This document shows positions 45,246-63,691 of a DNA stretch of 64,000 nt, one piece after another. Source of the DNA: an uncultured Gammaproteobacteria bacterium (GTDB lineage Bacteria; Pseudomonadota; Gammaproteobacteria; Poriferisulfidales; GCA-002705445); contig CAJYAP010000003.1 of NCBI GenBank assembly GCA_913065025.1, forward strand, positions 5,876 to 69,875, in the 5' to 3' direction. The stretch's first letter is position 1. Every line of letters begins with the position of its first letter. Position numbers and translations under genes: made by a program. The notes beneath the pieces are model-generated. The model saw only the letters and a program-made list of their open reading frames with translations. It ran no database searches and was not told where the DNA came from.

Positions 45246-45250
45246 AAAAT

Positions 45251-47531: not shown

Positions 47532-47556
47532 TATTTGTTATCCAAATATTTAGTTA

Positions 47557-47757
47557 TTAAATCTCATCATTTCCATTTAATTTATATACTGTAGAGCAAT
47601 AAGGGCACTTAATAGTGTTGCCACTTTCTTTTTCAATCGGCAAAAAAATTTTTGGATGAGAAAGTTTTAAGTAATCCTCTCTAGGGCAACTTAACGGCAG
47701 GTCATTAGTATTGATTAATATTGTATTTAAAGCTTTCTTAGTTTTTTTTTCAGACAT
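47557..47757 (-). CDS. zinc-finger (CHCC-type) small protein
   Basis: 66 aa with LSCPRED ... HP ... CPYCSTVY spacing, typical of the zf-CHCC family. Confidence 0.65.
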   Translation of the reverse strand: MSEKKTKKALNTILINTNDLPLSCPREDYLKLSHPKIFLPIEKESGNTIKCPYCSTVYKLNGNDEI

Positions 47758-47760
47758 GCT

Positions 47761-48684
47761 TTATTTTATAATTGTTAGCCAGTTTTTGTATTTTTCAGAT
47801 TTTCCATTAACAATATCAAAGAATTTTTTTTGTAATTTCTCGGTTATGGGACCTCTTGAGCCATTTCCTATAGATCTTTCGTCTAATTCTCTAATAGGTG
47901 TTACTTCTGCAGCTGTACCAGTAAAAAAAGCTTCATCCGAAATATAAATTTCGTCTCTAGTGATATTTTTAACTTTAATCTCAATTCCTTCATCTTCGGC
48001 TATTTTCATTACAGTTCTTCTTGTTATTCCGTCCAAAGCTGAATTTACCTCAGGAGTATAAATAGTTTTGTCGTTTACGATAAAAATATTTTCACCACTA
48101 CCTTCAGCAACATAACCATTGACATCAAGCAAAAGTGCTTCATCGTATCCACAATTTAGAGCTTCCTGAAGTGCAAGCATGGAGTTGATATAGTTTCCAT
48201 TAGCTTTTGCTTTACACATTGTTGCATTTACATGATGCCTTGTATAAGACGATGTTTTAATTCTAATGCCATTCTTTAGGTTATCGTCGCTAAAATAAGA
48301 TCCCCATTCCCATGCAGCGACCATTAAATGTTCTTTCAAATTATCGGCTCTTAAGCCCATACCTTCTGAACCATAAAAAACCATAGGTCTAATATAACCA
48401 GATTTTAAGTTATTTTTTTCAACTACCAATTTTTGAGCTTCTTCTATTTCTTTTTGCGAAAAAGGAATTTTCATACCTAATATTTTTGCCGAGTTTATCA
48501 ACCTTTTTGTATGATCTTCTAGTCTAAATATTCCAGCTCCTTTATCTGTTTTGTAAGCTCTTACGCCTTCGAATGCACCCATACCATAATGAAGGGTATG
48601 CGTTAATACGTGGACTTTAGCCTCTCTCCAAGGAACTAATTCACCATCCAACCATATAAAACCATCTCTATCAGACATCGACAT
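47761..48684 (-). CDS. ilvE: branched-chain-amino-acid aminotransferase
   Basis: About 307 aa with DGFIWLDGELVPWREAKVHVLTHTLHYGMGAFEGVRAY and EGSGENIF. The start is chosen at MSMSDRDG (48684). Confidence 0.93.
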   Translation of the reverse strand: MSMSDRDGFIWLDGELVPWREAKVHVLTHTLHYGMGAFEGVRAYKTDKGAGIFRLEDHTKRLINSAKILGMKIPFSQKEIEEAQKLVVEKNNLKSGYIRPMVFYGSEGMGLRADNLKEHLMVAAWEWGSYFSDDNLKNGIRIKTSSYTRHHVNATMCKAKANGNYINSMLALQEALNCGYDEALLLDVNGYVAEGSGENIFIVNDKTIYTPEVNSALDGITRRTVMKIAEDEGIEIKVKNITRDEIYISDEAFFTGTAAEVTPIRELDERSIGNGSRGPITEKLQKKFFDIVNGKSEKYKNWLTIIK

Positions 48685-48712
48685 AATAATGCTCCAATTT
48701 GTCATATTAGAT

Positions 48713-48743
48713 TCATTTGCATATGCAAATGAGAAATATTATC
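48713..48743. promoter_or_regulatory. perfect 20-bp palindrome overlapping a Fur-box-like site in the ilvE/fbpA divergent region
   Basis: TCATTTGCATATGCAAATGA lies at 48713-48732. The overlapping sequence GCAAATGAGAAATATTATC (48725-43) matches 13 of 19 positions of the Fur consensus GATAATGATAATCATTATC. It is about 50 nt upstream of the iron-transporter gene. Confidence 0.5.
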
Positions 48744-48790
48744 ATCTATTACTTATTAAACCTAAATTATATACATTAAGGAAAATATAT

Positions 48791-49855
48791 ATGCAAAATA
48801 CACTTTTTTTTATTAATTATAAAGCTTTGCAATCAATATTAATATTAATATTTATGTTTGCACCTGTGAACAGTTATAGCCACTCTGCGAAAAATCATGT
48901 GGAAGAAGAAATTAATGTTTACTCAGGCAGGAAAGGAAAATTAATAGAACCAATGTTAGAAAAATTTGAAAATAAAACTGGCATCAAGGTAAACCTAATT
49001 ACTGCTAAATCAGACGCATTAATAAAACGCATGGAATCTGAAGGAGAAAGTTCACCAGCAGATTTATTTATTACAGTAGACGTTGGTAGATTAGATCGTG
49101 CAAAAAAAATGGGTTTACTTCAAAAAATAAATAGTTTTTCTATAATAAATAAATTACCACAAAATTATATAGATAAAGATAGAGAATGGATTGGTATATC
49201 AAAAAGAATTAGAACCGTAGTTATTTCAAAAAAAATGAAAGATAAAAATGACTTAAAAAACTTTGAAGACCTAGCAAATAATCAATGGACAGGAAGAATC
49301 TGTGTTCGTTCCTCGAATAATATTTACAATCAGTCGCTAGTAGCTTCCATGATAGCAAATCATGGGGAACAAAAAACAGAGAGCACTATTAAAGAAATAG
49401 TTAAAAATTTTGCAAGAAAACCTTCGGGAAACGATAGAGCTCAGATAACTGCAATTTCTAAGGGTGAATGCGATATTGCAATAGTTAATCATTATTATTA
49501 TTTGCTAATGTTAAATTCTAAAGATGAAGAAAAAAGGAAAGCAGCAAATCAAACAGAGGTTATATTTTTAAATCAAGATAACCGAGGAGCACATGTAAAT
49601 ATCAGTGGTCTTGGTATTCCAAAACACGCTAAAAATTACGAGAATGCAATACAGCTAATTTCATTTATGTTAGAAATCGAAGCGCAAGAATGGTATGCAA
49701 AAACAAATAATGAGTTTCCTGTAGTAAATGGCGCTAAAGTTAGTAAGTTACTAAGTGAATGGGGAAGTATCAAGCTAGACGAATCCACATTAAAAAAATT
49801 AGGCGATTTAAATCCTAATGCTGTAAAATTGATGGATAGAGTAGGTTGGCAGTAG
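48791..49855 (+). CDS. fbpA: Fe(3+) ABC transporter periplasmic substrate-binding protein
   Basis: About 354 aa from MQNTLFF, with a signal peptide and an EEINVYSGRKGKLIEP start typical of FbpA/AfuA-type binding proteins. Confidence 0.85.
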   Translation: MQNTLFFINYKALQSILILIFMFAPVNSYSHSAKNHVEEEINVYSGRKGKLIEPMLEKFENKTGIKVNLITAKSDALIKRMESEGESSPADLFITVDVGRLDRAKKMGLLQKINSFSIINKLPQNYIDKDREWIGISKRIRTVVISKKMKDKNDLKNFEDLANNQWTGRICVRSSNNIYNQSLVASMIANHGEQKTESTIKEIVKNFARKPSGNDRAQITAISKGECDIAIVNHYYYLLMLNSKDEEKRKAANQTEVIFLNQDNRGAHVNISGLGIPKHAKNYENAIQLISFMLEIEAQEWYAKTNNEFPVVNGAKVSKLLSEWGSIKLDESTLKKLGDLNPNAVKLMDRVGWQ

Positions 49856-49915
49856 AATAGGGGATTTTCAATTTTAAACTTAGAGAGATTAGCATTAATT
49901 ATTGCATTAATATTT

Positions 49916-51442
49916 ATGGTGCCATTTGTATTTTTGGCGTCATCAATATTCTTTCCTTTTAGTGATAACTGGAATCATATAATAGATAATGTTCTTTATG
50001 ATTATTTTTTAAATTCTTTGGCTTTAGCATTTGGTGTTGGATTTTGTACCCTTATAATTGGAACCTCTACTGCATGGCTAACATCAGTGTTTGATTTTCC
50101 ATATCGAAAAATAATTTCTTGGCTTTTACTTATGCCATTAGCAATGCCAGCATATATAATTGCAATTACCTATGTGGGTATAATCGATAGCGTAAATTTT
50201 CTTCCAGACATAAGAAATCTATTCGGCGCGATTATTATGATCTCATTGGTTTTATACCCATATGTGTATATTCTAGCTAGAGGTGCTTTTTTAGAGCAAT
50301 CTAAAGAGTTGTATGAAAATTCACAAATGTTAGGAGCTTCGCAACTACAAATATTTCTTAGTGTATCAGTTCCAATGGCGAGACCCGCTATTATATTAGG
50401 TGTGACACTGGCCGCAATGGAGGCATTGGCTGATTTTGGAACAGTTGAATTTTTAGGTGTTCCTACTTTTACAACAGGAATATTTAGAACCTGGTTAGGA
50501 ATGAATGATACTGTTACGGCAACTCAAATGGCAACTTTATTCCTAAGTATAGTTTTTGTTTTTGTTTTCATAGAGCAACAGTCTAGAAAAAGAGTTCGAT
50601 ATGCCGAAAATATAAAGACACAGTCTAAACAAAACTATAAAATCTCTTCAAAAAAAAATAATACTTTGATAATAATAATATGTATTTTACCTATAGCTTT
50701 TGGATTTATTATTCCATTTTTACAACTATTATATTGGTCTGTATTCATATCTAATGAAAATTGGGACTCAGGATTTTTTAATATTGTTAGTGATACTTTA
50801 TTTTTATCTTTTCTAGCAGCATTAATAATTACTTTTATATCTATTTTAGTAACTTATGTAAAAAGATTTAATCCAAATAGTATTATTAACAAATTTATGC
50901 AAATTATCACTCTGGGCTATGCCATTCCTGGACCCGTAGTTGCAATTGCTGTTCTAGTTCCATTTGCAACATTAGATAATTATATCAATCAAATTCTGAT
51001 ATCTAAATTTGATTTATCTGTTGGATTAATTTTTAGCGGGTCATTCTTTATTTTAATCTTTGCTTATTGCATAAGATTTTTAACAGTATCATCAAGAACA
51101 ATAAGTTCAGGTTTAGATTCTATTAGTTTAGCTACTGATGATGCAGCTAAGTCTCTGGGTGCAAATACTAAAGTTATATTATCTAAAATTCATTTTCCTT
51201 TACTCAAAACATCATTACTAACTAGTTTTCTTTTAGTTTTTATTGACGTGATGAAAGAGTTACCGCTTACTTCTATTTTAAGACCTTTTAACTTTAATAC
51301 TCTTTCTGTTAAAGCATTTGAATTAGCTTCAGATGAAAAAATTGCCGATGCATCAAATGCTTCGATTATGATTGTTTTGGCAGGAATTATTCCTGTAATT
51401 TTAATTACAAAAAATATATTAGGAAAAAGAAATAAGGTATGA
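49916..51442 (+). CDS. fbpB: Fe(3+) ABC transporter permease (duplicated MetI-like domain)
   Basis: 508 aa, roughly 12 TM, with two permease repeats. The frame is open upstream to 49856 with AGGGGA at 49859-64, so a non-ATG start near 49871 is possible. Confidence 0.85.
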   Translation: MVPFVFLASSIFFPFSDNWNHIIDNVLYDYFLNSLALAFGVGFCTLIIGTSTAWLTSVFDFPYRKIISWLLLMPLAMPAYIIAITYVGIIDSVNFLPDIRNLFGAIIMISLVLYPYVYILARGAFLEQSKELYENSQMLGASQLQIFLSVSVPMARPAIILGVTLAAMEALADFGTVEFLGVPTFTTGIFRTWLGMNDTVTATQMATLFLSIVFVFVFIEQQSRKRVRYAENIKTQSKQNYKISSKKNNTLIIIICILPIAFGFIIPFLQLLYWSVFISNENWDSGFFNIVSDTLFLSFLAALIITFISILVTYVKRFNPNSIINKFMQIITLGYAIPGPVVAIAVLVPFATLDNYINQILISKFDLSVGLIFSGSFFILIFAYCIRFLTVSSRTISSGLDSISLATDDAAKSLGANTKVILSKIHFPLLKTSLLTSFLLVFIDVMKELPLTSILRPFNFNTLSVKAFELASDEKIADASNASIMIVLAGIIPVILITKNILGKRNKV

Positions 51443-51449
51443 TTGGTAT

Positions 51450-52508
51450 ATGAATAAAAAATTAATTATTTCTGATTTGTCTTTAGTGTTAGAGAATAAC
51501 AAGGATAAAAATAAAGTACTAACAAATGTTAATTTTGATTTAGAAGAATCAGAGATAGGATGTATTTTAGGTCCAAGCGGGTGTGGCAAGAGTTCATTGT
51601 TGCGTGCAATTGCTGGGTTTGAAAATATAAATTCAGGATCTATTCTAAAAGACGGAGTATGTATTTCAAATAGCCTTGAAAATACACCTGTGCAAGATAG
51701 GAAAATGGGTATGGTTTTTCAAGATTACGCATTATTTCCAAACATGGATATAAAAACCAATGTTGCTTTTGGATTAAAGAATAATACTAAAAAAGAAAAA
51801 GAGGACAGGGTAAATCATCTATTAGATATGGTGGGTCTTGGGAAATATAAAGATAAATATCCTCACGAATTGTCTGGAGGAGAACAACAAAGAGTCGCGC
51901 TTATAAGAGCTTTAGCACCTTCACCAGATATACTTCTTCTTGACGAACCCTTTTCTAATATTGACGCAGATATTAAAGAAGATCTAGTCTCTGATATTCG
52001 AGATTTATTAAAAGAATTATCAATTACTTCCATCATAGTTACTCATGACCAAAATGAGGCATTTAATATTGCAGATAAGGTTGCCATTATGAATAACGGT
52101 AAAGTTGAGCAAATTGGAAATGCTTATGATATATATCATAAGCCAGTCAATAAATTTGTAGCTGACTTTATAGGTCTTGGTGTTTTTATTCCAATTACTA
52201 GAAATAAAAATGGGCAGCTAGAAACACCTCTCGGCATGATTGAGAAAGATAAATTATCTGAAAAACATGTTCCAGCAAAAGATTTAGAAATGTTATTGCG
52301 CCCAGATGATATTATTCATAATGATGAAAGCGCTATAATGGCCGTAGTTGTGGAAAAACAATTCAGAGGCGCAGAGTTTTTATATAAATTACTATACAAT
52401 GACAAATACCCGCTTCTTTGTTTTGCTCCAAGTCATCACAATCATAAAATTGGTGAAGCAATTGGGATAGAATTAGAAATTGAACATTACGTAATATTTG
52501 AAAAATAA
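51450..52508 (+). CDS. fbpC: Fe(3+) ABC transporter ATP-binding protein
   Basis: 352 aa with Walker [10 protein letters not shown], signature LSGGEQQR, Walker [12 protein letters not shown] and a C-terminal TOBE-like domain. Confidence 0.9.
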
Positions 52509-54193
52509 TGAAAAGAAAAAATACAAAATTTTCGTCTGATATAGTGAAGGGATACGATAGGGCTCCTAGTAGAGCTATGCTAAGAGGCGTTGGTTTTAAA
52601 GATAAAGATTTTAATATACCGCAGGTTGGAATTGCTTCAACTTGGAGTGAAGTAACGCCATGCAATTCTCATATAAATAAACTTGCCGATGCAGTTAGTT
52701 CTGGCGTTGAAAGAAGTAATCTGAAACCAGTAATATTTAATACAATTACTATTTCTGATGGTATATCTATGGGAACAGAGGGCATGAAATACTCTTTAGT
52801 TTCTAGAGAGGTTATAGCAGACTCAATTGAAACAGTAGCTGCATGCGAAGGTTTTGACGGAGTAATAGCTATTGGTGGATGTGATAAAAATATGCCTGGT
52901 TGTTTAATAGGTCTAGCTAGATTAAATAGACCATCTTTATTTATATATGGCGGTACAATAATGCCTGGGACATATAAAAATAAGAAAATTGATATTGTTT
53001 CAGTTTTTGAGGCAGTTGGGCAATTTGCTAAAAAAGAAATATCTGAAAAAGAATTAAAAAACATAGAAGAAAAAGCTATACCAGGACCTGGATCTTGCGG
53101 TGGCATGTATACTGCAAATACAATGGCTTCTGCTGTAGAAGCATTAGGAATGAGCTTACCTGGAAGTTCTTCACAGGCTGCGATTTCTAAAGATAAAAAT
53201 TTAGATTGTGTAAATTCTGGAAAGGCTCTTAAAAATTTATTAGAAAAAAACATTACCCCTAAAGATATTATGACAAGAAAAGCATTTATTAACGCTATAA
53301 CGGTAACTATCACATTAGGTGGATCAACAAATGCTGTTCTTCATTTATTAGCAATGGCAAACGCAATTGGAGTTAAATTAGAGTTAAACGACTTTACAAG
53401 AATTGGAAAAAAAGTCCCAGTGTTGGGTGACTTAAGGCCAAGTGGTAAGTACATGATGTCAGAGCTGGTAAAAATTGGTGGAATCCAACCACTTATGAAA
53501 ATGTTGCTAGATGCTGGAATGCTTTATGGCGATTGCATAACCGTAACAGGAAAAACTTTGGCGGAAAATTTAAGTAAAGTAAAAAAATATCCTTCAAAAC
53601 AAAAAATTATTAGGTCATTAGATAACCCAATAAAAAAAGACAGCCATCTTGTGATTTTATATGGAAATCTTGCCCCAGATGGGGCAGTAGCAAAAATTTC
53701 TGGAAAGGAAGGATTGAGGTTTGAAGGCAAAGCAATAGTTTTTAATTCTGAAGAAATCGCCATGAAAGCTATTTTAGAAGGAAAAGTAAAAAAAGGACAT
53801 GTGATTGTTATTCGATATGAGGGTCCAAAGGGTGGGCCAGGAATGAGAGAAATGTTGGGCCCAACAAGCGCAATTATGGGTCAAGGCTTAGGCAAAGATG
53901 TAGCTCTAATTACCGACGGTAGATTTTCTGGGGGTAGCCATGGTTTTGTTATTGGTCATGTTTCTCCAGAAGCTGCAATAAAAGGGCCTATTGCTGTAAT
54001 TAAAAATGGCGATCAAATAGTAATTGATGCGCAAAAACAAATCATTGACTTAAAAGTAAGTAAAAAAGAAATTAAGGAAAGAACTCAGAAATTAACTCAT
54101 GTTAAATCTAAATATAAAAAAGGTATTTTAGCAAAATATGCAACTTTAGTAAGTTCTGCTTCAAAGGGCGCAGTCACAGATCTTTTTGAATAA
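52508..54193 (+). CDS. ilvD: dihydroxy-acid dehydratase
   Basis: 561 aa with [16 protein letters not shown] and [14 protein letters not shown] motifs. Its ATG overlaps the fbpC TAA (TAATG). Confidence 0.96.
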
Positions 54194-54199
54194 CGAACA

Positions 54200-54439
54200 T
54201 TAAGCAGGTTTTATTGTAAACCTCCCTGTAAATACCCATCTTATTATTAGGTATGATGGAAAAATTAATAATGACGCTAATGCAATTTCATTCTTGCTAT
54301 ATGGAAGAAATTTACTAAGAGGCCAAAATAAAGAATACCCTTCGTAAACATAATAAATCATATTTAAAGGATGAATTAAAAATAGCAACAATGTTAAAAC
54401 ATACATTAATCTATTTAATCTTTGATAAATGTTATGCAT
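54200..54439 (-). CDS. hypothetical small membrane protein
   Basis: 79 aa with two or three hydrophobic helices and no recognisable motif. Confidence 0.45.
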   Translation of the reverse strand: MHNIYQRLNRLMYVLTLLLFLIHPLNMIYYVYEGYSLFWPLSKFLPYSKNEIALASLLIFPSYLIIRWVFTGRFTIKPA

Positions 54440-54498
54440 TTTTAATCCTCTAATAAATAATTATTTTCCCTATAATTTTACACTTTTAATTTATTATT

Positions 54499-54921
54499 TC
54501 AAAAACCAGCTTTTTTAAGAAGTTCTTTCGCCTTTTCTTTATCTTGCTCTACAAGATTACCTTCTTCATACATCATTGCTAATGTTGTTAATGACCCTAC
54601 CAATCCTTGGCTAGCTGCTTTTGTGTACCAATGAACGGCAGCTTCTCCATTTTTTTCAGTACAGTCACCTTCCATATACATAAATCCTAAACCATGTTGG
54701 GCTAAGGCATGCCCATTTTCTGCTGCAGATTTCATCCATTTAAAAGCTAATAAAGGATTAGCTTTATTGCCTAAACCATTTTGGTACATGATAGCGCATC
54801 TATGTTGAGCTTCAGTATCTCCATTTTCTGCAAGGGGAGACAGCAATTGCATAGCTCTTGAAAAATGTTTAGCTTCGAACGCACTTAATCCGCTACTTAA
54901 TTCAACCTCATTTTTTTTCAT
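54499..54921 (-). CDS. Sel1-repeat (TPR-like) protein
   Basis: 140 aa with three tandem Sel1-type repeats (GDTEAQHRCAIMYQNGLG, GHALAQHGLGFMYMEG, GLVGSLTTLAMMYEEG). No signal peptide. Confidence 0.8.
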   Translation of the reverse strand: MKKNEVELSSGLSAFEAKHFSRAMQLLSPLAENGDTEAQHRCAIMYQNGLGNKANPLLAFKWMKSAAENGHALAQHGLGFMYMEGDCTEKNGEAAVHWYTKAASQGLVGSLTTLAMMYEEGNLVEQDKEKAKELLKKAGF

Positions 54922-55001
54922 CTTTATATCCCATTAACAATATTTTATTCTGATAGTATATACATATAATATATTAATAATAAATGCTTTAGGAGACTCT
55001 G

Positions 55002-56102
55002 TTGTCAAAAAATATGTTAAGAAGCGCGATTCAAAAAGTCGCTACAGGCCCAGAATTTAGTAAAAATATAACTGAAGAAGATAGCTATAACTCTATGTTA
55101 AATATATTAGATAGTGAATCTGATCCTATTCAAGCTGCAATTTACTTAATTGCAATGAGAATGAAAAGAGAAACTATGGACGAAAACATAGGATCACTTA
55201 AAGCACTTATAGATAAATCAAATATTATTACAGCTGATGTTGATGAGTTGCTTGATATAGCAGAGCCATATAATGGTTTTCTTAGGAATACTCCTATAAG
55301 CGCCTTTTTACCTTCAGTATTTTCTTCAATTGGAATACCATGTGTTACTCATGGAGTTGAAACAGTTGGCCCCAAATTTGGACTAACAACAAAAAAAATA
55401 TTAGAAACAGCAGGAATTAAAGTATCCAATAGTTCACAAGAGGCGTCTGATTTTTTAGGTAATAAAGATATCGGCTGGTCTTATATTGACCAAGAAAAAT
55501 TTTGTAAACCTCTATACGATTTGATTAATTTAAGGACAAGAATGGTAAAAAGAACCGTATTAACCACTATTGAAGTTCTAGTTGGCCCAATAAGAGGAAA
55601 AGATAAAACACATCTTTTGACCGGATATGTGCATGCAGCATACCCACCAGTCTATTCAGATCTTGCGAAAGTCTCAGGTTTTGACTCAGCTGTTTTAGTA
55701 AAAGGTGTTGAAGGTGGTGTTTCTCCAGCACTAAGAGGTGATGGAAAAGTTTTCTATTATTATGATAACAGTGAAATGCAAGAAACAAAATTTAATCCAA
55801 AAAATATATCTATAGAACAAAATATGAGAGCAGTGCCATTACCAGAACTTGAGAAAAAAGAAGAAATTAAATTAGATGAAATATCTAGTGATATAAACGT
55901 AGATGATTTTTCAAGCAAAGCGGTAGAAATTGGAATTGATGCATTGAACGGTAAAGACGGCCCTGCGAAAGATACTTTGGTATATACTGGAGCCATAACA
56001 CTTTCAATTATAAAAAATATTGATTTTAATGACGCAGCTGTTCAGATTAGAAAGTCTATAGATAGTGGCAAAGCAAAAGAATTTTTTTATAATGCAATTT
56101 GA
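55002..56102 (+). CDS. anthranilate phosphoribosyltransferase-like (glycosyl transferase family 3) paralog
   Basis: 366 aa with a TTG start after AGGAG. The N-terminal helical domain (IQAAIYLIAMRMKRET) and the HG..VGPKFG region resemble TrpD, but the GTGGD PRPP motif position reads IAEPYNG. Confidence 0.6.
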   Translation: MSKNMLRSAIQKVATGPEFSKNITEEDSYNSMLNILDSESDPIQAAIYLIAMRMKRETMDENIGSLKALIDKSNIITADVDELLDIAEPYNGFLRNTPISAFLPSVFSSIGIPCVTHGVETVGPKFGLTTKKILETAGIKVSNSSQEASDFLGNKDIGWSYIDQEKFCKPLYDLINLRTRMVKRTVLTTIEVLVGPIRGKDKTHLLTGYVHAAYPPVYSDLAKVSGFDSAVLVKGVEGGVSPALRGDGKVFYYYDNSEMQETKFNPKNISIEQNMRAVPLPELEKKEEIKLDEISSDINVDDFSSKAVEIGIDALNGKDGPAKDTLVYTGAITLSIIKNIDFNDAAVQIRKSIDSGKAKEFFYNAI

Positions 56103-56153
56103 ATTATAATTAGCAAATGTTTAAAATAAATAAATGTATACAAGAGGAGCAAA

Positions 56154-56348
56154 ATGAACGAAACATATAGAAATGCAGTAGTGCAAATGGAAGAGCAAGG
56201 TGTTCAAGATGAATATATTCTTGGTTGGCAAGGTGGTTTTTTAGGCCATCCACCAAGAGAAGAAACAAGAACAAATGAAGCTTATGATGCAGGCTACGAA
56301 GATGGCCAAGAAAAAAACTTAGCCAATATAGGTGATTGGAAGAAATAG
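56154..56348 (+). CDS. hypothetical acidic small protein
   Basis: 64 aa with a strong SD (GAGGAG at 56144-49) and no recognisable motif. Confidence 0.55.
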   Translation: MNETYRNAVVQMEEQGVQDEYILGWQGGFLGHPPREETRTNEAYDAGYEDGQEKNLANIGDWKK

Positions 56349-56349
56349 A

Positions 56350-56904
56350 TTATTTGTTTACTAGAGAAGCAATTGGTCTTCGCAAAGATAGTAATATTTT
56401 AGGAACCTCTTGATCAATAACATACATTCTTATCCAATTATTATCTAATTCCCCCATATGGGTCATCAAATGGTTCCCAAGTATAATTCTTGATTTATAA
56501 CTTGGTTCCTCGTTATATTCTAGCTCAGAATATTCTCCCATCCGGTCATTTAAAAGATTAATAAATTTAGTCTTAATATTTTCTTTTGGGATTTTTAAAT
56601 CGACCTGGTTAATATTTACTGTTTCATTAAGTTTTTTAGCAATATCTGTTATAAAATTTATTTTTTTTTCTTTATCATAAGATTTGATTTCATTATTTGC
56701 TACATAAATCTGGAAACAAGAAACCTCTTTTAAAATTTCCATTCTTTCGGACCAAGTGTCGGTATCAAAGCCTTCATTTTCTAAATTGAGTAAAGTTTTT
56801 TTTGATATTTTCCAAATACTTACAGCAAGAGCACTAGCAATTTGCCCAACTTGTCTTTTTTTTCCTTTTTGATTCCAACCGCTATGTATTCTTTGTATAC
56901 TCAT
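56350..56904 (-). CDS. hypothetical protein
   Basis: 184 aa soluble protein with no recognisable motif. It is convergent with the 64-aa gene, with 1 nt between the two stops. Confidence 0.6.
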   Translation of the reverse strand: MSIQRIHSGWNQKGKKRQVGQIASALAVSIWKISKKTLLNLENEGFDTDTWSERMEILKEVSCFQIYVANNEIKSYDKEKKINFITDIAKKLNETVNINQVDLKIPKENIKTKFINLLNDRMGEYSELEYNEEPSYKSRIILGNHLMTHMGELDNNWIRMYVIDQEVPKILLSLRRPIASLVNK

Positions 56905-56949
56905 ATTAATATATTTGTTAATTACATATTTTATTATACATCATTACTT

Positions 56950-57522
56950 ATGAGAGAGATAAAACCAAATTCATTTATCTTTGAATTTAATAATGCTTTG
57001 AAAAAGGAAGATTGTAAAAGCATTATAGGTAGATTTGAGGATAATAAAGAAGAACATTATATCGGCAAAATTGGTCAAAATATTTCCGAAGATTTAGATA
57101 TAAAAAAATCTACAGATTTATTTATTAGTGGTAAAGAAATTTGGAAAGATGTTGATAAACTTTTCTTTAGTGCGTTAGCAAAATCATTACATGAGTTTAA
57201 AAATGAAATAGAATTTTTTAAAGGTCCTTTTAAGGATATGGGATATGCTATTCAAAGAACTGATGCTGGGCAATATTATCATTGGCATATAGATGGAGGA
57301 AGTCATGATTTTAGCTATAGGCAACTTGTAGCAATATTTTATTTAAACGATTTAGAAGAGAGTCAGGGTGGCACAACAGATTTCTATCATCAGAATATAA
57401 GTATAACCCCAGAGGCTGGAAAGTTAATTTTATTCCCCCCATTCTGGACTCACAAACATAGAGGTTCAGAAGTTTTATTTAAAGCAAAGTACATTGCGAC
57501 AACATGGATTGTATTTGCTTAA
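56950..57522 (+). CDS. 2OG-Fe(II) oxygenase (prolyl-4-hydroxylase-like)
   Basis: About 190 aa from MREIKPNSF. The facial triad is HWHID ... THKH, and the double-stranded beta-helix strand motif is VAIFYLND ... GGTTDF. Confidence 0.8.
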   Translation: MREIKPNSFIFEFNNALKKEDCKSIIGRFEDNKEEHYIGKIGQNISEDLDIKKSTDLFISGKEIWKDVDKLFFSALAKSLHEFKNEIEFFKGPFKDMGYAIQRTDAGQYYHWHIDGGSHDFSYRQLVAIFYLNDLEESQGGTTDFYHQNISITPEAGKLILFPPFWTHKHRGSEVLFKAKYIATTWIVFA

Positions 57523-57529
57523 AAACTAA

Positions 57530-57850
57530 TTAAGAAAAAGAAGTTTCTTCCATATTACCAGATATATCAATATCTATAATTTTTACGTCTGGCATTTGAT
57601 TTATAATATATGCAGCCATCATGATAGCTGTTTCTTTTTTATTAAGATGAATAGATGTAAATAAACGATCTGCAGCTATTTGACATTTTTGGAATTGACT
57701 TGGGTTATCAACCCAACTTTTGCTCATCTGCCATCCTTTATTCATGTCTGAATCCATTTGAGCAAAAAAGGATTGAGCTTCTGTTACAATTTTCTCTTGA
57801 ATTTTAAGAGGATATTCATTCTCGCCGAGAATGACATTAAGTTCGTACAT
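57530..57850 (-). CDS. hypothetical protein (106 aa), last gene of the dsrA-divergent operon
   Basis: Its ATG lies 3 nt after the stop of the 68-aa gene. No recognisable motif. Confidence 0.6.
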   Translation of the reverse strand: MYELNVILGENEYPLKIQEKIVTEAQSFFAQMDSDMNKGWQMSKSWVDNPSQFQKCQIAADRLFTSIHLNKKETAIMMAAYIINQMPDVKIIDIDISGNMEETSFS

Positions 57851-57853
57851 ATA

Positions 57854-58060
57854 TTATTTTTTAGAGCCTTTCTCTTCATGTGCAAGGTCAACTATATCCA
57901 TAGCTAAATCTCTATACTCTTCTCTAAAACCTGCAATCTCTGAGTCATCATCTGGAGCAAAATATTCAGATGCTTCAACTCCTTGTTCTCTATCCAAAGC
58001 TATGAACTTTTTTTGCATATCCAGTAACTTTTGAATTTTAGCTTGCTTATCTTCACTCAT
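57854..58060 (-). CDS. hypothetical acidic helical protein (68 aa)
   Basis: MSEDKQAKIQKLLDMQKKF... with a predicted helical character. No recognisable motif. Confidence 0.55.
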   Translation of the reverse strand: MSEDKQAKIQKLLDMQKKFIALDREQGVEASEYFAPDDDSEIAGFREEYRDLAMDIVDLAHEEKGSKK

Positions 58061-58143
58061 TTAATCCATCCTTTCAATTTTAACTAAGTTTTAATAATAA
58101 CCTAGTTGTTGATATAAAATCCACTAGTCCAAATTGGGTAGGT

Positions 58144-58488
58144 TTAATACCCGCCTTTTCTTCTGCTTTCAGGCAAGCCAGAAATTCTTCCACCTTGTTT
58201 ACTAGGGTCCCCTGGAAAAAGATCATAAAGAACTTTGGCATCTATTTTTTCACCCCAAAGCTTTTCAAAAAATTTTACTAGTTTTCTCGTATTCGGCTGG
58301 TTCCCAGCATTATTAAAAAATTCATCTCTTAGATGATTTATTACATCCCAATGCCTATCAGTTAATTGTAATTTTTCAATATCAGCTATAGCTTTAGCTA
58401 GGTCTTCAGACCAATCTTCAGCATTAACTAAGTATCCCATTTCTGTTGTCTCTATTTGTTTTCCCGCAATTTCTATTGTTGGCATCAT
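58144..58488 (-). CDS. DsrC/TusE-family protein lacking both C-terminal cysteines
   Basis: 114 aa with a GGGAGG SD. It aligns by eye along its whole length with DsrC (IEIAGKQIETTEMGYL ... LTDRHWDVINHLRDEF ... LYDLFP...KQ). The tail reads QGGRISGLPESRRKGGY instead of QACRFAGLPKPTGCV. Confidence 0.85.
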   Translation of the reverse strand: MMPTIEIAGKQIETTEMGYLVNAEDWSEDLAKAIADIEKLQLTDRHWDVINHLRDEFFNNAGNQPNTRKLVKFFEKLWGEKIDAKVLYDLFPGDPSKQGGRISGLPESRRKGGY

Positions 58489-58510
58489 TTACCTCCCTAA
58501 CGAATTAAAT

Positions 58511-59191
58511 TTATTCACTACTTTTTGAAACAGCTACAGGAGCTATACTTTTGTGAGGTAAAAAGATACCACATCCATATAATTTTCCAATACCTATTCC
58601 GAGCTGTTGTATTTTTATCGAGTCTTTTTTTTCAAGATCTGTTATTAGTAAAGTTTTTCCAATAAGGGTTTTATTAGGAATTTTAATAAAATGTTCCTTC
58701 CCGCACAGCATCTTTTTAACATTTATACCCATAGATATTAAAGATGAATTAACCTCTTGAAGAAACTCTTCTTCGTTTGCATTATTTTCAACAACAACTG
58801 TCCTGCAAAAAAGAGTATCTGTGATAATCAAATTCTTTGTGCTGGGCCTTGAAAGAGTCATCTCATATTTTCCAATTTTAAGCATTTCGCCATCAAGTTT
58901 ATAAAATTCCTTGGAATATTCGACAGGTGTTCTTATGCAAAATCTTGTCCTTTTCGAAAGATATATTTCTGTTTCTGGTCTCTCCCATCCAGCTCCTGAC
59001 TCGGCGCCATATACTGAGTGTATCGCTAAATTATTAATATCTCTTATTTTTGGGAATTTATTAAGAACAGCCTCAAATAAATCATAAGCATGGTCAGATG
59101 AAATCTTATTGCAGTTAACCTTAAATGATACATCAACTATTGCATTATCAGTTTCGTTTGGTTTATTTTGATCATCTTCTTCCCAATACAT
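58511..59191 (-). CDS. Cas6/Cmx6-like RAMP protein, not associated with CRISPR
   Basis: 226 aa. The C-terminal sequence GIGIGKLYGCGIFLPHK exactly fits the Cas6 glycine-rich loop pattern GhG-x5-GhG. The N-terminus MYWEEDD...IVDVSFKVNC..SSDHAYDL resembles what I remember of subtype I-MYXAN Cas6 (Cmx6) family members. No search was run. Confidence 0.6.
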   Translation of the reverse strand: MYWEEDDQNKPNETDNAIVDVSFKVNCNKISSDHAYDLFEAVLNKFPKIRDINNLAIHSVYGAESGAGWERPETEIYLSKRTRFCIRTPVEYSKEFYKLDGEMLKIGKYEMTLSRPSTKNLIITDTLFCRTVVVENNANEEEFLQEVNSSLISMGINVKKMLCGKEHFIKIPNKTLIGKTLLITDLEKKDSIKIQQLGIGIGKLYGCGIFLPHKSIAPVAVSKSSE

Positions 59192-59193
59192 AA

Positions 59194-59385
59194 TTACCTT
59201 TTTGGTGAGGTAAACAGATTTTCAAGATCTGTTTCCCAGTAGTCTGGTGTATCGTCAAAGTTAGGTTTGATGTCTAGTGATAAAAACATTTCACCTTCTT
59301 CAATTTTTTTAGATATAAACTCTTTAAGGTCTTTATAGGATTTCAACTTATATTGTTGAATAAGTATTTCACTCATTGTTAACAT
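59194..59385 (-). CDS. hypothetical acidic small protein (63 aa)
   Basis: GGAG lies 7 nt upstream, inside the end of the TauD-like gene. There are 2 nt between its stop and the next start. No recognisable motif. Confidence 0.55.
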   Translation of the reverse strand: MLTMSEILIQQYKLKSYKDLKEFISKKIEEGEMFLSLDIKPNFDDTPDYWETDLENLFTSPKR

Positions 59386-59389
59386 TTTT

Positions 59390-60271
59390 TTACTCCACTC
59401 TTTTAGAAAATCTTAGTCTTTTAAGCAGTCTTTTATTATTACCATCAACATATTCTTCTCTTTTATGCAGTACGTTATTTGCTAAATAACCCTGATTTTC
59501 TTTCAATAAAAGATTAAAAGTATAATGATTATCTTCCGCTATAAAACTAAAAATAAAATCTTTTATTTTTTTTATTGTATCATTTTTTTTCCATATAATA
59601 TTTTGCTGTCTTGAAGTAAACCTCATGTTTAGAAAGTTTCTTTCATCTATATAAAAAACAGGGCCTTTCACAGAATGACTACCTACAATATTTTTATTTC
59701 CTGGTATCTCCATAATATCGTTTTGCATCAATATATTTATGAACTCAGGATTATGATCTCTCAAGTAAATATATATAATTTCATGATCTAATATTATATT
59801 TTCCCCTCCTCGCTGAGCTGGGTGCTCACAATGCAGTAAGAAAGATTTTATAGCTGAATCTAGCGGGTAGTAGTAACCATCGGTGTGCCAATTTAGCTGT
59901 TTATTTGTATATGGAATATATTCTACATTGGGACTTTTTTCCTTACTTTGATTTTGATTAGTGATATTAGAAATGTCATCTTCATCGGCAAGAAGATTTG
60001 ATACAGAATTTACTAATTTTAATCTAGAACAGAATTTTTTTAGAGATTCGTTTGTTAATTTTGCATCAAATTCATACATTGCAAAATTGTATTTAGTAAC
60101 AGAGTCCTTAAGCAAATTAATTTTATTATTATTTATATCGTTATTTTTAAATTTAATTAAAATTTTTTCTCTCGAAATTGGGTATTGCGCAAGTTTATAG
60201 TCGCGCCATTTTTTATATTCTGTTTGATTTTCGAGTAAAAAAGGAGAGTTCATTATTAGATTGTATGACAT
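59390..60271 (-). CDS. TauD/TfdA-family Fe(II)/2-oxoglutarate dioxygenase
   Basis: 293 aa with LNWHTDGYY (HxD) and a distal His in NNVLHKREEY followed by basic residues, the TauD-like layout. It is the first gene of the operon, 210 nt from dsrA. Confidence 0.75.
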   Translation of the reverse strand: MSYNLIMNSPFLLENQTEYKKWRDYKLAQYPISREKILIKFKNNDINNNKINLLKDSVTKYNFAMYEFDAKLTNESLKKFCSRLKLVNSVSNLLADEDDISNITNQNQSKEKSPNVEYIPYTNKQLNWHTDGYYYPLDSAIKSFLLHCEHPAQRGGENIILDHEIIYIYLRDHNPEFINILMQNDIMEIPGNKNIVGSHSVKGPVFYIDERNFLNMRFTSRQQNIIWKKNDTIKKIKDFIFSFIAEDNHYTFNLLLKENQGYLANNVLHKREEYVDGNNKRLLKRLRFSKRVE

Positions 60272-60481
60272 TTAAGATTAATTTTGATAGGATAATTGTG
60301 AAAATATATTAAATTTATTTAATAAATGTTTGTTACAAGTAATATATCCAATATGGGGTATATAAATGATTCCAAAAGAGATAGATAGGACACCCCAAAA
60401 GAACGATGTCAATAGCAGGAAATAACTCATAAAATAAAATTATCTATAGATAAAAATAATGTAATACAAAGGAGAAAAAGA

Positions 60482-61735
60482 GTGGCTGATAAACATAACA
60501 CCCCTATGTTAGATGAATTAGAGCATGGCCCATGGCCTAGTTTTATATCAGGTATTAAAAGATTAAGAGATCAACACCCAGAAGAGAGAATTTCTAGTAC
60601 AGCAAATTCATTATTAGGTCAGCTCGAACATTCCTACGAAACAAGAAAAGGTTATTGGAAAGGTGGGACAGTCAGTGTATTTGGTTATGGAAGTGGAATT
60701 ATCCCAAGATTTTCCGAAGTAGGTGATGCGTTTCCAGAGTCCAGAGAATTTCATACTCTAAGGGTGCAACCTCCAGCAGGTAATTACTATACTACTGGTA
60801 TGCTAAGACAGCTTGGTGAAAGTTGGGAAAAACATGGTTCTGGCCTCCAAACATTTCATGGTCAAACAGGAAATATAATGTTTATTGGTTCAACAACCGA
60901 AAACACTCAACACTTTTTTGATGAAATTAACGAATACGGATGGGATCTTGGTGGAGCCGGCCCATGTGTTCGAACTGGAATGTGTTGCGTTGGCGCCGCA
61001 AGATGCGAGCAATCTAATATTGACGAAATAAAAATTCATAGAACATTATTAAATAATTTCACAGATGATGTTCATAGACCTGCTTTACCTTATAAATTCA
61101 AATTCAAAGTATCTGGATGCCCAAATGATTGTGTTAACTCCATTGAAAGAGCTGACTGTGCAATTATAGGTACATGGAGAGACGATATGAAAGTCGATCA
61201 ATCAGAGGTTAAGGATTTTGTTGCGAAAAAAGGCAGGAAGTATGTAATCGATAATGTAATTACAAGATGCCCAACAAATTGTTTATCTTTAAAAGACGAT
61301 GATACTTTAGAAGTTGATAATAGAAATTGTGTAAAATGCATGCATTGTTTAAATGTAATGCCAAAAGCATTAAGTCCAGGAGATGATAAAGGCGCAACCG
61401 TCCTTATGGGTGGTAAAAGAACTTTGAAAGTAGGTGACTTAATGGGAACAGTTATAGTTCCATTTATGAAATTAGATACCGAAGAAGACTATGAAAAACT
61501 TACAGAATTAGCTGAAGAAACTATAGATTTTTGGGCTGAGAATGGATTAGAGCATGAGCGTTGTGGAGAAATGATTGAAAGAATAGGGCTTGTGAATTTC
61601 TTGGATGGTATTGGATTAGAAGTTGATCCAAATATGGTTGCGGATCCAACAACAAGTTCATACGTTAGAATGGACGGATGGGATGATGAAGCTGAAAAGT
61701 GGTTCAAGGAAAAATTACAGGCTGCAGAAGCTTAA
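60482..61735 (+). CDS. dsrA: dissimilatory sulfite reductase alpha subunit (oxidative/reverse type)
   Basis: 417 aa with a GTG start after AAGGAG. The N-terminus is TPMLDELEHGPWPSF, the siroheme/4Fe-4S cysteines are CCVGAARCE and SGCPNDC, and a ferredoxin insert is present. Confidence 0.96.
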   Translation: MADKHNTPMLDELEHGPWPSFISGIKRLRDQHPEERISSTANSLLGQLEHSYETRKGYWKGGTVSVFGYGSGIIPRFSEVGDAFPESREFHTLRVQPPAGNYYTTGMLRQLGESWEKHGSGLQTFHGQTGNIMFIGSTTENTQHFFDEINEYGWDLGGAGPCVRTGMCCVGAARCEQSNIDEIKIHRTLLNNFTDDVHRPALPYKFKFKVSGCPNDCVNSIERADCAIIGTWRDDMKVDQSEVKDFVAKKGRKYVIDNVITRCPTNCLSLKDDDTLEVDNRNCVKCMHCLNVMPKALSPGDDKGATVLMGGKRTLKVGDLMGTVIVPFMKLDTEEDYEKLTELAEETIDFWAENGLEHERCGEMIERIGLVNFLDGIGLEVDPNMVADPTTSSYVRMDGWDDEAEKWFKEKLQAAEA

Positions 61736-61766
61736 TTTTTAATAAATTTAAAATAAGGAATTAATA

Positions 61767-62855
61767 ATGTCGGAACAACAAGCAAAACCAGCAAATAGAC
61801 CACCAATAGAAACAGGATGTCCTGATGCATTTCAATATATGCATCCAGTAATGAGAAGGAATTATGGGCAATGGGCATATCATGAAGATCCACGTCCAGG
61901 CGTATTAAAACATGTCGCTCACAGTGGTGATGCTATATGGACAGTTAGAGCTGGAACCCAAAGGATTTTAGATGTCACAACTTTAAATCTGTTATGTGAT
62001 ATTGGAGATAGATATGCTGATGGCTACGTTAGATTTACTATTAGAAGTAACATTGAATACATGATTGACCAAGAATCTAAAGTTGGGCCTTTAATAGTTG
62101 AATTAGAAAAAAATGGATTTGTAGTAGGTGGAACAAAAAACTCTGTAGCAATGATATCTCATACACAGGGATGGTTGCATTGTGATATTCCTGGAACTGA
62201 TGCATCTGGAGTTGTAAAGGCCATGATGGATGAAGTAATTGATGAATTTAAAGGTTGGAATATGCCTAATAGAGTTCATATGACAACATCATGCTGTCAG
62301 ATTAACTGTGGTGGGCAAGGCGACATTGCTATCAATGTTCAGCACACAAAACCGCCAAAAATTAATCATGACTTGGTTTCAAATGTCTGTGAAAGACCTT
62401 CGGTTGTTGCACGCTGCCCAGTAGCCGCTATTAGACCAGCACAGGTGAATGGAAAACCATCTCTAGAAGTTGACGAAAAAAAATGTATTTGTTGTGGAGC
62501 ATGCTATCCACCATGTCCCCCAATGCAGATTAATGATGCGGAGCATACAAAACTTTCAGTATGGGTTGGTGGGAACCATTCTAATGCTAGAGGAAAACCA
62601 TCATTTCAAAAATTAGTTGCAGCTGGTATACCAAACAATCCTCCAAGATGGCCTGAAGCAACTGCAATTGTGAAAAAAATTCTAAGAGCTTATAGAGACG
62701 ATGCAAAGGATTGGGAAAGAATTAGTGATTGGGTTGAAAGAATTGGATGGCCAAGATTCTTCGAGTTAACAGGGCTACCATTTACAAAATTCCATATAAA
62801 CAATTGGAAGGGCGCTAGAAATAGTCTTAATGCATCTACTCATATAAGATTTTAA
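61767..62855 (+). CDS. dsrB: dissimilatory sulfite reductase beta subunit
   Basis: 362 aa with TTSCCQINCGGQGD and the ferredoxin domain CPVAAIRP ... CICCGACYPPCP. Confidence 0.96.
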   Translation: MSEQQAKPANRPPIETGCPDAFQYMHPVMRRNYGQWAYHEDPRPGVLKHVAHSGDAIWTVRAGTQRILDVTTLNLLCDIGDRYADGYVRFTIRSNIEYMIDQESKVGPLIVELEKNGFVVGGTKNSVAMISHTQGWLHCDIPGTDASGVVKAMMDEVIDEFKGWNMPNRVHMTTSCCQINCGGQGDIAINVQHTKPPKINHDLVSNVCERPSVVARCPVAAIRPAQVNGKPSLEVDEKKCICCGACYPPCPPMQINDAEHTKLSVWVGGNHSNARGKPSFQKLVAAGIPNNPPRWPEATAIVKKILRAYRDDAKDWERISDWVERIGWPRFFELTGLPFTKFHINNWKGARNSLNASTHIRF

Positions 62856-62876
62856 TAGTATTAAAGAGGAGATAAT

Positions 62877-63269
62877 TTGAAACTAGGAATATTAATTAAT
62901 GAAGGCCCATATCAACATCAAGCGTCTGATACCGCTCTTCAATATGTAAAAGCTGCGATAAAGAAGGGTCATGAAATCTATCGTGTATTCTTTTATAACG
63001 ATGGCGTGAATAATGCTACAAGACTAGCTACACCGCCTCAAGATGATAGAAATATTACAAAAGAATGGTCGGAATTAGCAAAAAATCATAATATAGATTT
63101 GGTTGTTTGCGTCGCTGCTGCACAAAGAAGAGGTATTTTGGACAAAGGTGAAGCAGAAAGAAATGGTAAGGATTCTGATAATATCGAGGAAGGTTTTAGA
63201 ATATCCGGGTTAGGCCAACTTGTTGAAGCTGGTATCCAAGCTGATAGATTAATTACTTTTGGAGATTAA
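62877..63269 (+). CDS. dsrE: sulfurtransferase DsrE
   Basis: 130 aa with a TTG start after GAGGAG. INEGPYQHQASD and the active-site Cys in VVCVAAAQRRG are present. Confidence 0.95.
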   Translation: MKLGILINEGPYQHQASDTALQYVKAAIKKGHEIYRVFFYNDGVNNATRLATPPQDDRNITKEWSELAKNHNIDLVVCVAAAQRRGILDKGEAERNGKDSDNIEEGFRISGLGQLVEAGIQADRLITFGD

Positions 63270-63274
63270 GACTT

Positions 63275-63691
63275 GTGAGCGAAGAAGGAATTGTAAAAAA
63301 ATTTATGTACGTAAATAGAAAAAGTCCTTATGGAACTATTTACGCTTTGGAATCTCTAGAAGTTGTTTTAATAACTGCAGCTTTTGATCAAGATGTAAGT
63401 TTAACTTTTACTGATGATGGTGTTTATCAATTGATGAAAGATCAAAAAACTGATGGTATTGGAATGAAAAACTTTTCATCAACATACTCAGCTTTAGGTG
63501 ATTATGAAATAAAGAAAATTTTTATTGATAAAGAATCTTTAGAAGAAAGGGGTTTATCAGTATCAGATTTACAAGAATTGGTTTGGGAAGATGAAGACGA
63601 AGATTATGCTGAGAAGAGCTCGATTAATTTAGTATCAAGAGCAGAGTTGTCAAATATTATGAGTCAGCAAGACATTGTCATGAGTTTTTAA
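63275..63691 (+). CDS. dsrF: sulfurtransferase subunit DsrF
   Basis: 138 aa with a GTG start and KKFMYVNRKSPYGTIYALESLEVVL. Confidence 0.93.
   Translation: MSEEGIVKKFMYVNRKSPYGTIYALESLEVVLITAAFDQDVSLTFTDDGVYQLMKDQKTDGIGMKNFSSTYSALGDYEIKKIFIDKESLEERGLSVSDLQELVWEDEDEDYAEKSSINLVSRAELSNIMSQQDIVMSF

Follow-up and report, generated by a model that had tools for sequence, protein, structure and literature searches.

A conserved gene island with a Cas6-fold protein and a cysteine-less DsrC paralogue stands across the dsrA promoter in gammaproteobacterial sulfur oxidisers

The DNA analysed here, referred to as the window, is a stretch of 64,000 nucleotides (nt) from an uncultured Gammaproteobacteria bacterium (assembly GCA_913065025.1, contig CAJYAP010000003.1, positions 5,876-69,875, forward strand), in which six open reading frames (ORFs) lie in a row on the minus strand (57530-60271), divergently from dsrA, the first gene of an oxidative dsr operon. 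Counted from the dsrA side, they encode a TauD-like protein, an acidic protein of 63 amino acids (aa) called s63, a Cas6-like protein, a DsrC-like protein without cysteines, and two further small acidic proteins, s68 and s106. The gaps between them are 4, 2, 22, 83 and 3 nt, and 210 nt separate the TauD-like start at 60271 from the GTG start codon of dsrA at 60482, so that the layout is exactly the one given in a preliminary description of the window. Shine-Dalgarno-like sequences stand upstream of s63, Cas6-like, DsrC-like and s68. Together with several neighbours, these genes make up a conserved island, accessory to the oxidative Dsr pathway of sulfur-oxidising Gammaproteobacteria, with a core composed of a Cas6-fold protein that has departed from CRISPR (clustered regularly interspaced short palindromic repeats) systems, its 63-aa acidic partner, and a Cys-less DsrC paralogue with an RKGGY tail. 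Travelling with this core are s68, s106, one to three Fe(II)/2-oxoglutarate (2OG) dioxygenases, and a protein of the Alvin_2107 family (Table 1).

Table 1. Genes and sequence features of the island and its flanks, in coordinates of the window.
Feature	Positions	Strand	Assignment and recurrence
TauD-like, 293 aa	59390-60271	minus	TauD/TfdA-superfamily Fe(II)/2OG dioxygenase, BBOX/TMLH/TmpA-like branch; PF02668 3e-15
s63, 63-aa acidic protein	59194-59385	minus	Close partner gene of Cas6-like; without Pfam, NCBIfam, PHROG or PDB match
Cas6-like, 226 aa, Cmx6-like	58511-59191	minus	CRISPR-independent Cas6 fold; PF09559 2.6e-54, TIGR02807 above cutoff
DsrC-like, 114 aa	58144-58488	minus	Cys-less DsrC/TusE-family paralogue; PF04358 1.3e-30; RKGGY C-terminus
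s68, 68-aa acidic protein	57854-58060	minus	Probably helical; homologues in 50/71 loci; no family match
s106, 106-aa acidic protein	57530-57850	minus	Motif DMDKGWQMS...QRCQI; homologues in 23/62 loci; no family match
2OG-Fe(II) oxygenase (2OG-FeII_Oxy_3, prolyl 4-hydroxylase-like)	56950-57522	plus	PF13640 1e-13; convergent to s106
h184, 184-aa conserved protein	56350-56904	minus	No family in Pfam, NCBIfam or PHROGs; 36/51 loci
Alvin_2107-family "globule sulfur oxidation protein", 64 aa	56154-56348	plus	NF049856, 88.2 bits against a cutoff of 60; 35/51 loci
TrpD2/YbiB-like glycosyl-transferase-family-3 protein, 366 aa	55002-56102	plus	PF02885, PF00591; 24/51 loci
dsrA, dsrB, dsrE, dsrF	60482-63691	plus	ORFs; start of the oxidative dsr operon; divergent neighbour of the island
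dsrA/TauD-like divergent control region	60272-60481		Footprint of 12 relatives
83-nt spacer between DsrC-like and s68, with TACCCAATTTGGACTAGTGGATTTTATA at 58113-58140	58061-58143	minus	Sequence kept within the clade

The Cas6-like profile was searched against a collection with one genome per species, and the genome profile scan yielded 192 encoded relatives of the 226-aa protein. Synteny was counted in 80 loci kept from these, each denominator being the number of loci with enough flanking sequence. Throughout the 80 loci, the named relatives are Gammaproteobacteria or unclassified Pseudomonadota, and every named match is a gammaproteobacterial sulfur oxidiser. Record labels assign the carriers to Thiotrichaceae/Thiotrichales, Cocleimonas, Leucothrix, Sedimenticola, Ectothiorhodospiraceae and Thiohalophilus, as well as to the sponge-associated Candidatus Poriferihabitaceae (order Arenicellales), Porisulfidus, and marine single-cell genomes. 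An exhaustive profile search placed 259 clusters (50% identity) in the Cas6-like family at E<=1e-30, and the s63 profile reached 3738 database proteins at E<=1e-3.

Across these loci, dsrA is divergent from the Cas6-like gene and at most 3.5 kb away from it in 58 of 63 cases, the DsrC-like gene follows immediately downstream of Cas6-like on the same strand in 58 of 77, the TauD-like gene is near Cas6-like in 59 of 69, and s63 in 56 of 76, the last figure being an underestimate, as one copy missed by tblastn is known. Synteny persists across several lineages down to 35% identity of the Cas6-like protein, while DsrA/B identity across related loci amounts to 73-98%. The preliminary description had suspected that DsrC-like neighbours recur beside such Cas6 proteins and had asked whether the TauD-like and small genes travel along and whether the arrangement extends past close relatives; all three are borne out by these counts. 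The breadth it had imagined, across phyla or in many proteobacteria, shrinks to the gammaproteobacterial sulfur oxidisers among the named matches.

The tightest pair of the island is formed by s63 and Cas6-like, with a median spacing of 4 nt. This pair also stands alone, with no dsr gene or DsrC-like gene within 10 kb, in L040, L043 and L044 (labelled Porisulfidus or Oxydemutatoraceae), where it lies between aroB and a parA-like gene. The central pairing of Cas6-like with DsrC-like that had been assumed therefore gives way to that of Cas6-like with s63. The row of six ORFs had also been called an operon; the row stands, the single operon is doubtful, because in other lineages the TauD-s63-Cas6 block is set apart from the DsrC-like gene and from the s68-s106 block, either of which can be inverted or displaced. 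Judged by gene order, the six genes thus appear to behave as two or three sub-modules rather than as one fixed operon, and two or three transcription units are possible. Nor is the island limited to six genes, since the 2OG-Fe(II) oxygenase (within 10 kb in 34 of 51 loci), h184, the Alvin_2107-family gene and the TrpD2-like gene recur at up to 10 kb, each in somewhere between about half and two thirds of the loci. In sum, a co-functioning module linked to sulfur oxidation, as first proposed, is supported, with its breadth, core pairing and extent corrected.

The whole arrangement is found in the cultured Thiohalophilus thiocyanatoxydans (L081), where dsrLKMCHFEBA is followed by divergent TauD, s63, Cas6, DsrC-like and s68, and further on by a PKHD-type hydroxylase, s106, a 2OG-FeII_Oxy_3 protein, DUF6866, h184 and an Alvin_2107-like gene; no cas gene occurs among its Pfam-annotated neighbours. 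Long, near-identical GC-rich hairpin repeats resembling repetitive extragenic palindromes are present in the same locus (9781-10000 and 11685-11888); they are species-specific and lie outside the conserved island.

None of the six genes belongs to the described oxidative set dsrABEFHCMKLJOPNRS, as the preliminary description stated: tested by Dsr homology and place in the operon, the island genes failed, and only the DsrC-like protein has Dsr homology, with its gene outside the operon and on the opposite strand. All six ORFs are genuine genes under purifying selection, as ratios of nonsynonymous to synonymous polymorphism (pN/pS), computed against five relatives, are low (s63, 0.06-0.12; s68, 0.06-0.15; s106, 0.06-0.13; h184, 0.05-0.15; Cas6-like, about 0.2) and tblastn finds homologues of the small ORFs at 33-50% identity in distant lineages.

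That the 226-aa protein has a Cas6 fold, as first proposed, is agreed upon by PF09559 (184.5 bits against a cutoff of 26.7), TIGR02807 cas6_cmx6 (121.5 bits against 98.85) and structure comparison. Its AlphaFold2 (AF2) model (predicted local distance difference test, pLDDT, 84.5) has as its best Foldseek match 8fcj_B, the Cas6 of a type I-B CRISPR-associated transposon Cascade (E=2e-15; template-modelling (TM) scores 0.78/0.82), followed by classical Cas6 and Cas6e structures, and the sequence profile matches the same chain at E=2e-23. We aligned nine dsr-linked members with two Cas6 genes of genuine type I-MYXAN systems from cyanobacterial plasmids. Like genuine I-MYXAN/I-B Cas6 (8FCJ chain B), to which it is only 23-29% identical, the Cas6-like protein has the fold of two RNA-recognition motifs (TM about 0.8), and it has in common with the I-MYXAN proteins a helix-1 His, two Arg and a G-rich loop, GxGxxxxxGxGxF. 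The columns invariant in all 11 proteins are H34, L38, G68, R87, R130, L186 and G198/G200/G206/G208/F210, and 119 of 149 representatives of the family have the G-rich loop. His34 lies at the start of the first helix, the place where characterised Cas6 enzymes have their catalytic histidine. Since residues common with genuine I-MYXAN Cas6 stay invariant, this conservation argues that the Cas6-like protein may still handle RNA.

The context of the gene is another matter. In the two genuine I-MYXAN systems, Cas6 heads a cas6-cas3-cas8-cas7-cas5-cas4/1-cas2 operon with an array of 12 or 21 repeats behind it, whereas the dsr-linked protein has neither array nor cas genes, is always accompanied by the 63-aa protein and usually lies beside dsrA; the dsr-linked subfamily also has additions of its own that are conserved, MxWEE at the N-terminus and an inserted SGxGWxRP. 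The absence of CRISPR noted earlier for the window holds and extends further: no array was found in its 64 kb or in 82 related loci (1.29 Mb in all), and a PADLOC scan of 55 window ORFs returned no Cas family besides Cas6. As a type I-MYXAN Cas6, the protein consequently passes by score and by its double ferredoxin-like fold with G-rich loop and fails by array and cas-gene context. NCBI-style models do name it type I-MYXAN Cas6/Cmx6, as would be expected of an orphan cas6 left beside dsr by chance from a decaying CRISPR-Cas system. Such a remnant is effectively excluded by the position kept beside dsrA, a pN/pS of about 0.2, the number of clusters in the family, the lack of arrays in the 82 loci, and the conserved additions specific to the subfamily.

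The DsrC-like protein matches PF04358 over residues 6-107 (profile positions 1-102 of 107), and the lack of C-terminal cysteines reported for it in the preliminary description extends to the whole protein, which has no cysteine at all and ends in ...GLPESRRKGGY. Its C-terminus reads ...GLP(E/x)SxRKGGY across related loci; among the 120 best database matches, 119 end in RKGGY and 114 are without any cysteine. No other protein of the island is as well conserved, the median identity being 94% in the close clade (Cas6-like, 77%) and 59% against 38% in distant lineages. The full-length fold match and the GLP before the arm are retained from the DsrC/TusE/RspA family, whereas the arm itself, ESRRKGGY in place of KPTGCV in DsrC, is two residues longer and has lost both redox cysteines. 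A canonical two-Cys DsrC ending in ...QACKYAGLPKPTGCV is also encoded inside the dsr operon of related loci (the window stops earlier), so that the DsrC-like gene, outside that operon, is additional to it. With the redox cysteines gone and the canonical DsrC separately encoded, the DsrC-like protein is, by its sequence, an extra paralogue that cannot do the chemistry of DsrC or TusE.

In the name RspA, given to a branch of this family, the R denotes a suspected regulatory role. Cys-less DsrC/TusE relatives are set apart as RspA in the DsrC/TusE/RspA family (PMC8477390), and the absence of both C-terminal cysteines is the sole criterion by which the DsrC-like protein fits that branch. By the definition of DsrC, two arm cysteines in the motif AGLPKPTG-C (PMC8477390), the protein fails, although it passes by fold and PF04358. 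Four extra DsrC/TusE paralogues of unknown role are encoded by A. vinosum (PMC3368242), one of which, Alvin_1508, goes down 7-8-fold along with dsrE and dsrF on pyrite (PMC11267869). In eight loci (L023, L024, L029, L047, L050, L053, L068, L074), GGCP replaces GLP before RKGGY, and the single cysteine of this clade is at neither canonical DsrC cysteine position. In L020, a tandem repeat of the AACAACTCAAAAAAC type begins right after the DsrC-like stop (about 11284-11530) and is broken by a run of N, an assembly gap.

TusE works on a complex of RNA and enzyme. The island might accordingly modify or process tRNA or another stable RNA, a function that would come from the TusE side of the family; the DsrC-like protein would then be an adaptor in the manner of TusE, and RNA would be bound by the Cas6-like and TrpD2-like proteins. 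The DsrC-like protein does score 77.7 bits on the TusE model NF008562, and YbiB-type TrpD2 proteins are named DNA-binding in NCBIfam; the TrpD2-like protein of the window has below-cutoff matches to PRK07394 and YbiB. We regard this reading as very unlikely, because the catalytic Cys of TusE is missing, the score is far under the cutoff of 191, and the linkage is strictly to dsrA rather than to mnmA or tusBCD.

For the three small acidic proteins, the earlier impression that they resemble nothing recognisable is upheld, as none matches a family in Pfam, NCBIfam or PHROGs, and the profiles of all three also found no match among PDB sequences. The AF2 model of s63 (pLDDT 87), a small three-helix unit, has no fold match in the PDB or BFVD. 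In s68, A60-H61 and S66 near the C-terminus are invariant, and in s106, Cys56 is nearly invariant. Public records call several s63 homologues "sulfur relay protein DsrC" (P0302, P0287, P0352, P0356), a misnomer that could inflate DsrC counts; s63 was rejected as a DsrC relative by hhalign (probability 0.7%). Apparent s63-Cas6 fusions among the database matches turned out to be upstream read-through or chimeric calls. In L015, a 235-aa protein without Pfam match (9292-9999) occupies the place of s63 between TauD-like and Cas6-like, and six other loci of the same Poriferihabitaceae type (L018, L021, L025, L027, L030, L033) show an interval of similar size, about 700 nt, at that place and no match to s63.

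The median isoelectric points (pI) across homologues of s63, s68 and s106 are 4.5, 5.3 and 4.8; the DsrC-like and Alvin_2107-family proteins are acidic too, and the TauD-like protein is basic (pI 8.9). Homologues of s63, s68, DsrC-like and Alvin_2107 are mostly free of cysteine, which makes a persulfide relay unlikely. The acidity of the small proteins may fit an accessory complex of Dsr made of proteins only, in which the Cas6 fold would be a scaffold for acidic small proteins that modulate or assemble DsrAB or DsrEFH without any RNA, and in which the RKGGY arm may enter the DsrAB channel as a non-reactive mimic of DsrC. Five co-located small proteins are acidic, as would suit ligands of a nucleic-acid-binding groove, the DsrC-like protein has an invariant arm that exceeds the DsrC arm by two residues, and the family name of Alvin_2107 refers to sulfur-globule oxidation; a homologue of the latter is mentioned once in a symbiont transcriptome study (PMC8269255). 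A precedent exists in DsrD, a small accessory protein encoded with dsrAB and reported to be an allosteric DsrAB activator that alters Dsr activity without carrying sulfur (PMC8794893). DsrD is a marker of the reductive pathway, however, and no sequence relationship between it and any island protein was detected. Besides, a protein-only complex leaves the invariance of His34, Arg87, Arg130 and the G-rich loop unexplained, and the s63-Cas6 pair persists in L040, L043 and L044 with neither dsr nor DsrC-like genes nearby. We regard this explanation as the main rival, rather unlikely in itself but only slightly less probable than the reading preferred below.

The TauD-like protein scores 57.1 bits on PF02668 (cutoff 27), and H129-x-D131...H269 and R281/R285 are invariant in 21 homologues, so that its iron and 2OG site is complete and it passes as a member of the TauD/TfdA superfamily by Pfam match, HxD...H triad and 2OG-binding Arg. 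The triad and the Arg are common to the BBOX/TMLH/TmpA branch, to which its nearest solved structures belong (TmpA, 1e-7; BBOX, 6e-6). These enzymes are nevertheless distant from it (PDB profile matches of 1e-7 to 1e-5), and NCBIfam equivalog models for TauD sensu stricto, TMLH, BBOX and TmpA give only 24-42 bits against cutoffs of 268-415. Its PYTNKxLNWHTDGYY segment resembles a BBOX-type active-site strand. Further dioxygenases raise the number per locus to up to three. In L023 (11617-12348) and L081 (11889-12563), a PKHD-type (YbiX-like) Fe2+ dioxygenase lies between s68 and s106, and a DUF6866/Sfum_1244-family protein stands beside the 2OG oxygenase (L023, 13463-14530; L081, 17459-18502); neither was found among the scanned window ORFs (44253-60271). 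For DUF6866, NCBIfam offers only the name "Sfum_1244 family", and identity with DsrS was considered and not confirmed.

These enzymes could form a modification pathway, in which the TauD-like protein and the other 2OG oxygenases would hydroxylate either one of the small proteins or the DsrC-like protein at its RRK(GGY) tail, to yield a modified carrier or cofactor for sulfur oxidation. The complete iron and 2OG site, the basic TauD-like protein amid acidic neighbours, its place in a branch acting on cationic substrates (TmpA, BBOX) and the presence of up to three dioxygenases per locus all speak for it. The TauD-like gene, however, is absent from L029, L050 and L070, which retain Cas6-like and DsrC-like; the activating, cleaving or export enzymes usual in peptide-modification clusters are missing; and the role of the Cas6 fold is left unexplained. 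A pathway of this kind is doubtful.

The intergenic DNA adds evidence on regulation. The region between dsrA and the TauD-like gene has four conserved blocks: an imperfect inverted repeat (60343-60364), a TTGACA-like block (60406-60413), TTATCTATAGATAA (60440-60453) and TTGATAGGATAA (60284-60295). TTATCTATAGATAA is a perfect palindrome, 28 nt upstream of the dsrA start codon and kept in the close clade, and could be an operator; its halves, GATAAT/ATTATC, are reminiscent of iron-regulator boxes. Across lineages, a short inverted repeat with a GC stem, yyACCC-N2-7-GGGr, is enriched at two places: 14 of 61 loci have it 90-240 nt upstream of dsrA (1.4 expected), and 8 of 54 have it 40-150 nt upstream of s68 (0.44 expected), kinship among loci being ignored in these counts. 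In five loci, from lineages other than that of the window, the s68-proximal copy is a perfect hairpin, TACCC-N5-GGGTA, with 5 bp in the stem and 5 nt in the loop, which lies 8-21 nt past the DsrC-like stop and about 100-120 nt before s68. The motif shared between the two places is comparative evidence that dsrA and the island may be co-regulated, whether it acts as DNA or as RNA. In the 83-nt spacer of the window, no terminator was predicted on the coding strand, and a hairpin of the window clade, CTAGT...ACTAG, was dismissed as it is not kept in L002. An Rfam scan of the window matched no RNA family.

Taking these observations together, our preferred reading is that the island is a regulatory device for Dsr rather than a sulfur relay, a reading that we hold tentatively, at a probability of roughly 0.35. 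The Cas6-like protein would bind, and probably cut, a specific small RNA hairpin in transcripts of the dsr locus through His34, the two Arg and the G-rich loop, and the acidic s63 would dock on it to cap or regulate it. The DsrC-like protein, blind to sulfur, would be an adaptor or decoy through which, by TusE-like docking, the state of DsrAB/DsrEFH, or DNA, is coupled to the RNA-binding protein. The analogy is with TusE, MnmA and tRNA, as here too a DsrC-family protein is encoded with, and possibly docks on, an RNA-binding protein; it differs in that TusE carries persulfide on a Cys whereas the DsrC-like protein has none, and in that the partner is the Cas6-like protein and not MnmA, the docking being putative. 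The dioxygenases would contribute an O2-dependent hydroxylation input. In its most specific form, in which a domesticated Cas6 endoribonuclease with s63 and the DsrC adaptor cuts dsr mini-hairpins and so sets the expression of sulfur oxidation, with the dioxygenases signalling oxygen, the proposal is unlikely.

Several observations weigh against a regulatory device of this kind. The median pI of the Cas6-like family is 6.4, near neutral and not strongly basic, and His34 is replaced in some distant members, DH[AG] occurring in 85 of 149 representatives, a set that includes fragments. The RNA target is putative only. The window copy of the hairpin motif (TACCCAATTTGGACTAGTGGATTTTATA) is degenerate, the hairpin is lineage-restricted and absent where the gap between DsrC-like and s68 is 17-26 nt, one class of dsrA-proximal sites (CCCATGGG, within palindromes like GAACCTC...GAGGTTC) has no room for a loop and resembles a DNA operator, and the intergenic motif occurs on either strand. 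In 15 aligned repeat instances, all related sequences, the register of the stem varies between lineages, with a 4-nt loop and U-G wobble in some against a 5-nt loop in others, so that counting pairs on so few related sequences carries no meaning. The dioxygenases have no link to any protein substrate. Genuine I-MYXAN repeats form an AUGCC-GUAA-GGCGU hairpin with a 7-8-nt tail, to which TACCC-N5-GGGTA is close in size; given the loop-free operator-like class, the occurrence on either strand and the absence at the shorter gaps, this likeness is suggestive and falls short of proof.

A few features of the window lie apart from these questions. The ORF of the 2OG oxygenase was listed from a TTG at 56842, which overlaps h184 by 63 nt and yields an odd hydrophobic leader; for these reasons, the ATG at 56950 (M37) is the likelier true start. 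A Sel1-repeat protein is encoded at 54499-54921, and in L023 a Sel1-like ORF, called by eye, follows the Alvin_2107 homologue. Among the ORFs in positions 1-54000, PADLOC reported matches to mad1/2/3/8, AriA, MzaA, HEC-02 and type II methyltransferases, which probably reflect generic ATPase and methylase similarity.

The composition of the island matches no described system, and it is apparently undescribed; a full-text literature search, which left some subscription papers uncovered, returned no paper tying Cas6 to DsrC, TusE or dsrAB in sulfur oxidisers. Public annotation labels its members "type I-MYXAN Cas6/Cmx6", "TusE/DsrC family" and, for s63, "sulfur relay protein DsrC", with the others "hypothetical", and each of the recognisable members falls short, in function, of the protein it is named after. 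For metagenomic surveys, this is a warning not to take such Cas6 matches for CRISPR-Cas content or RKGGY proteins for DsrC. In abundant Gammaproteobacteria of the sea, of sediments and of symbioses, sulfur oxidation is driven by the oxidative Dsr pathway, whose regulation and several accessory steps are unresolved. Across the dsrA promoter from the operon stands a gene set that equals parts of this operon in conservation, masked by misleading annotation names. If the proposed role is true, sulfur metabolism would gain new, testable players and a missing regulatory layer of Dsr, and CRISPR biology would gain a clear case of a Cas6 recruited to housekeeping, the first with a conserved cellular role beyond CRISPR.

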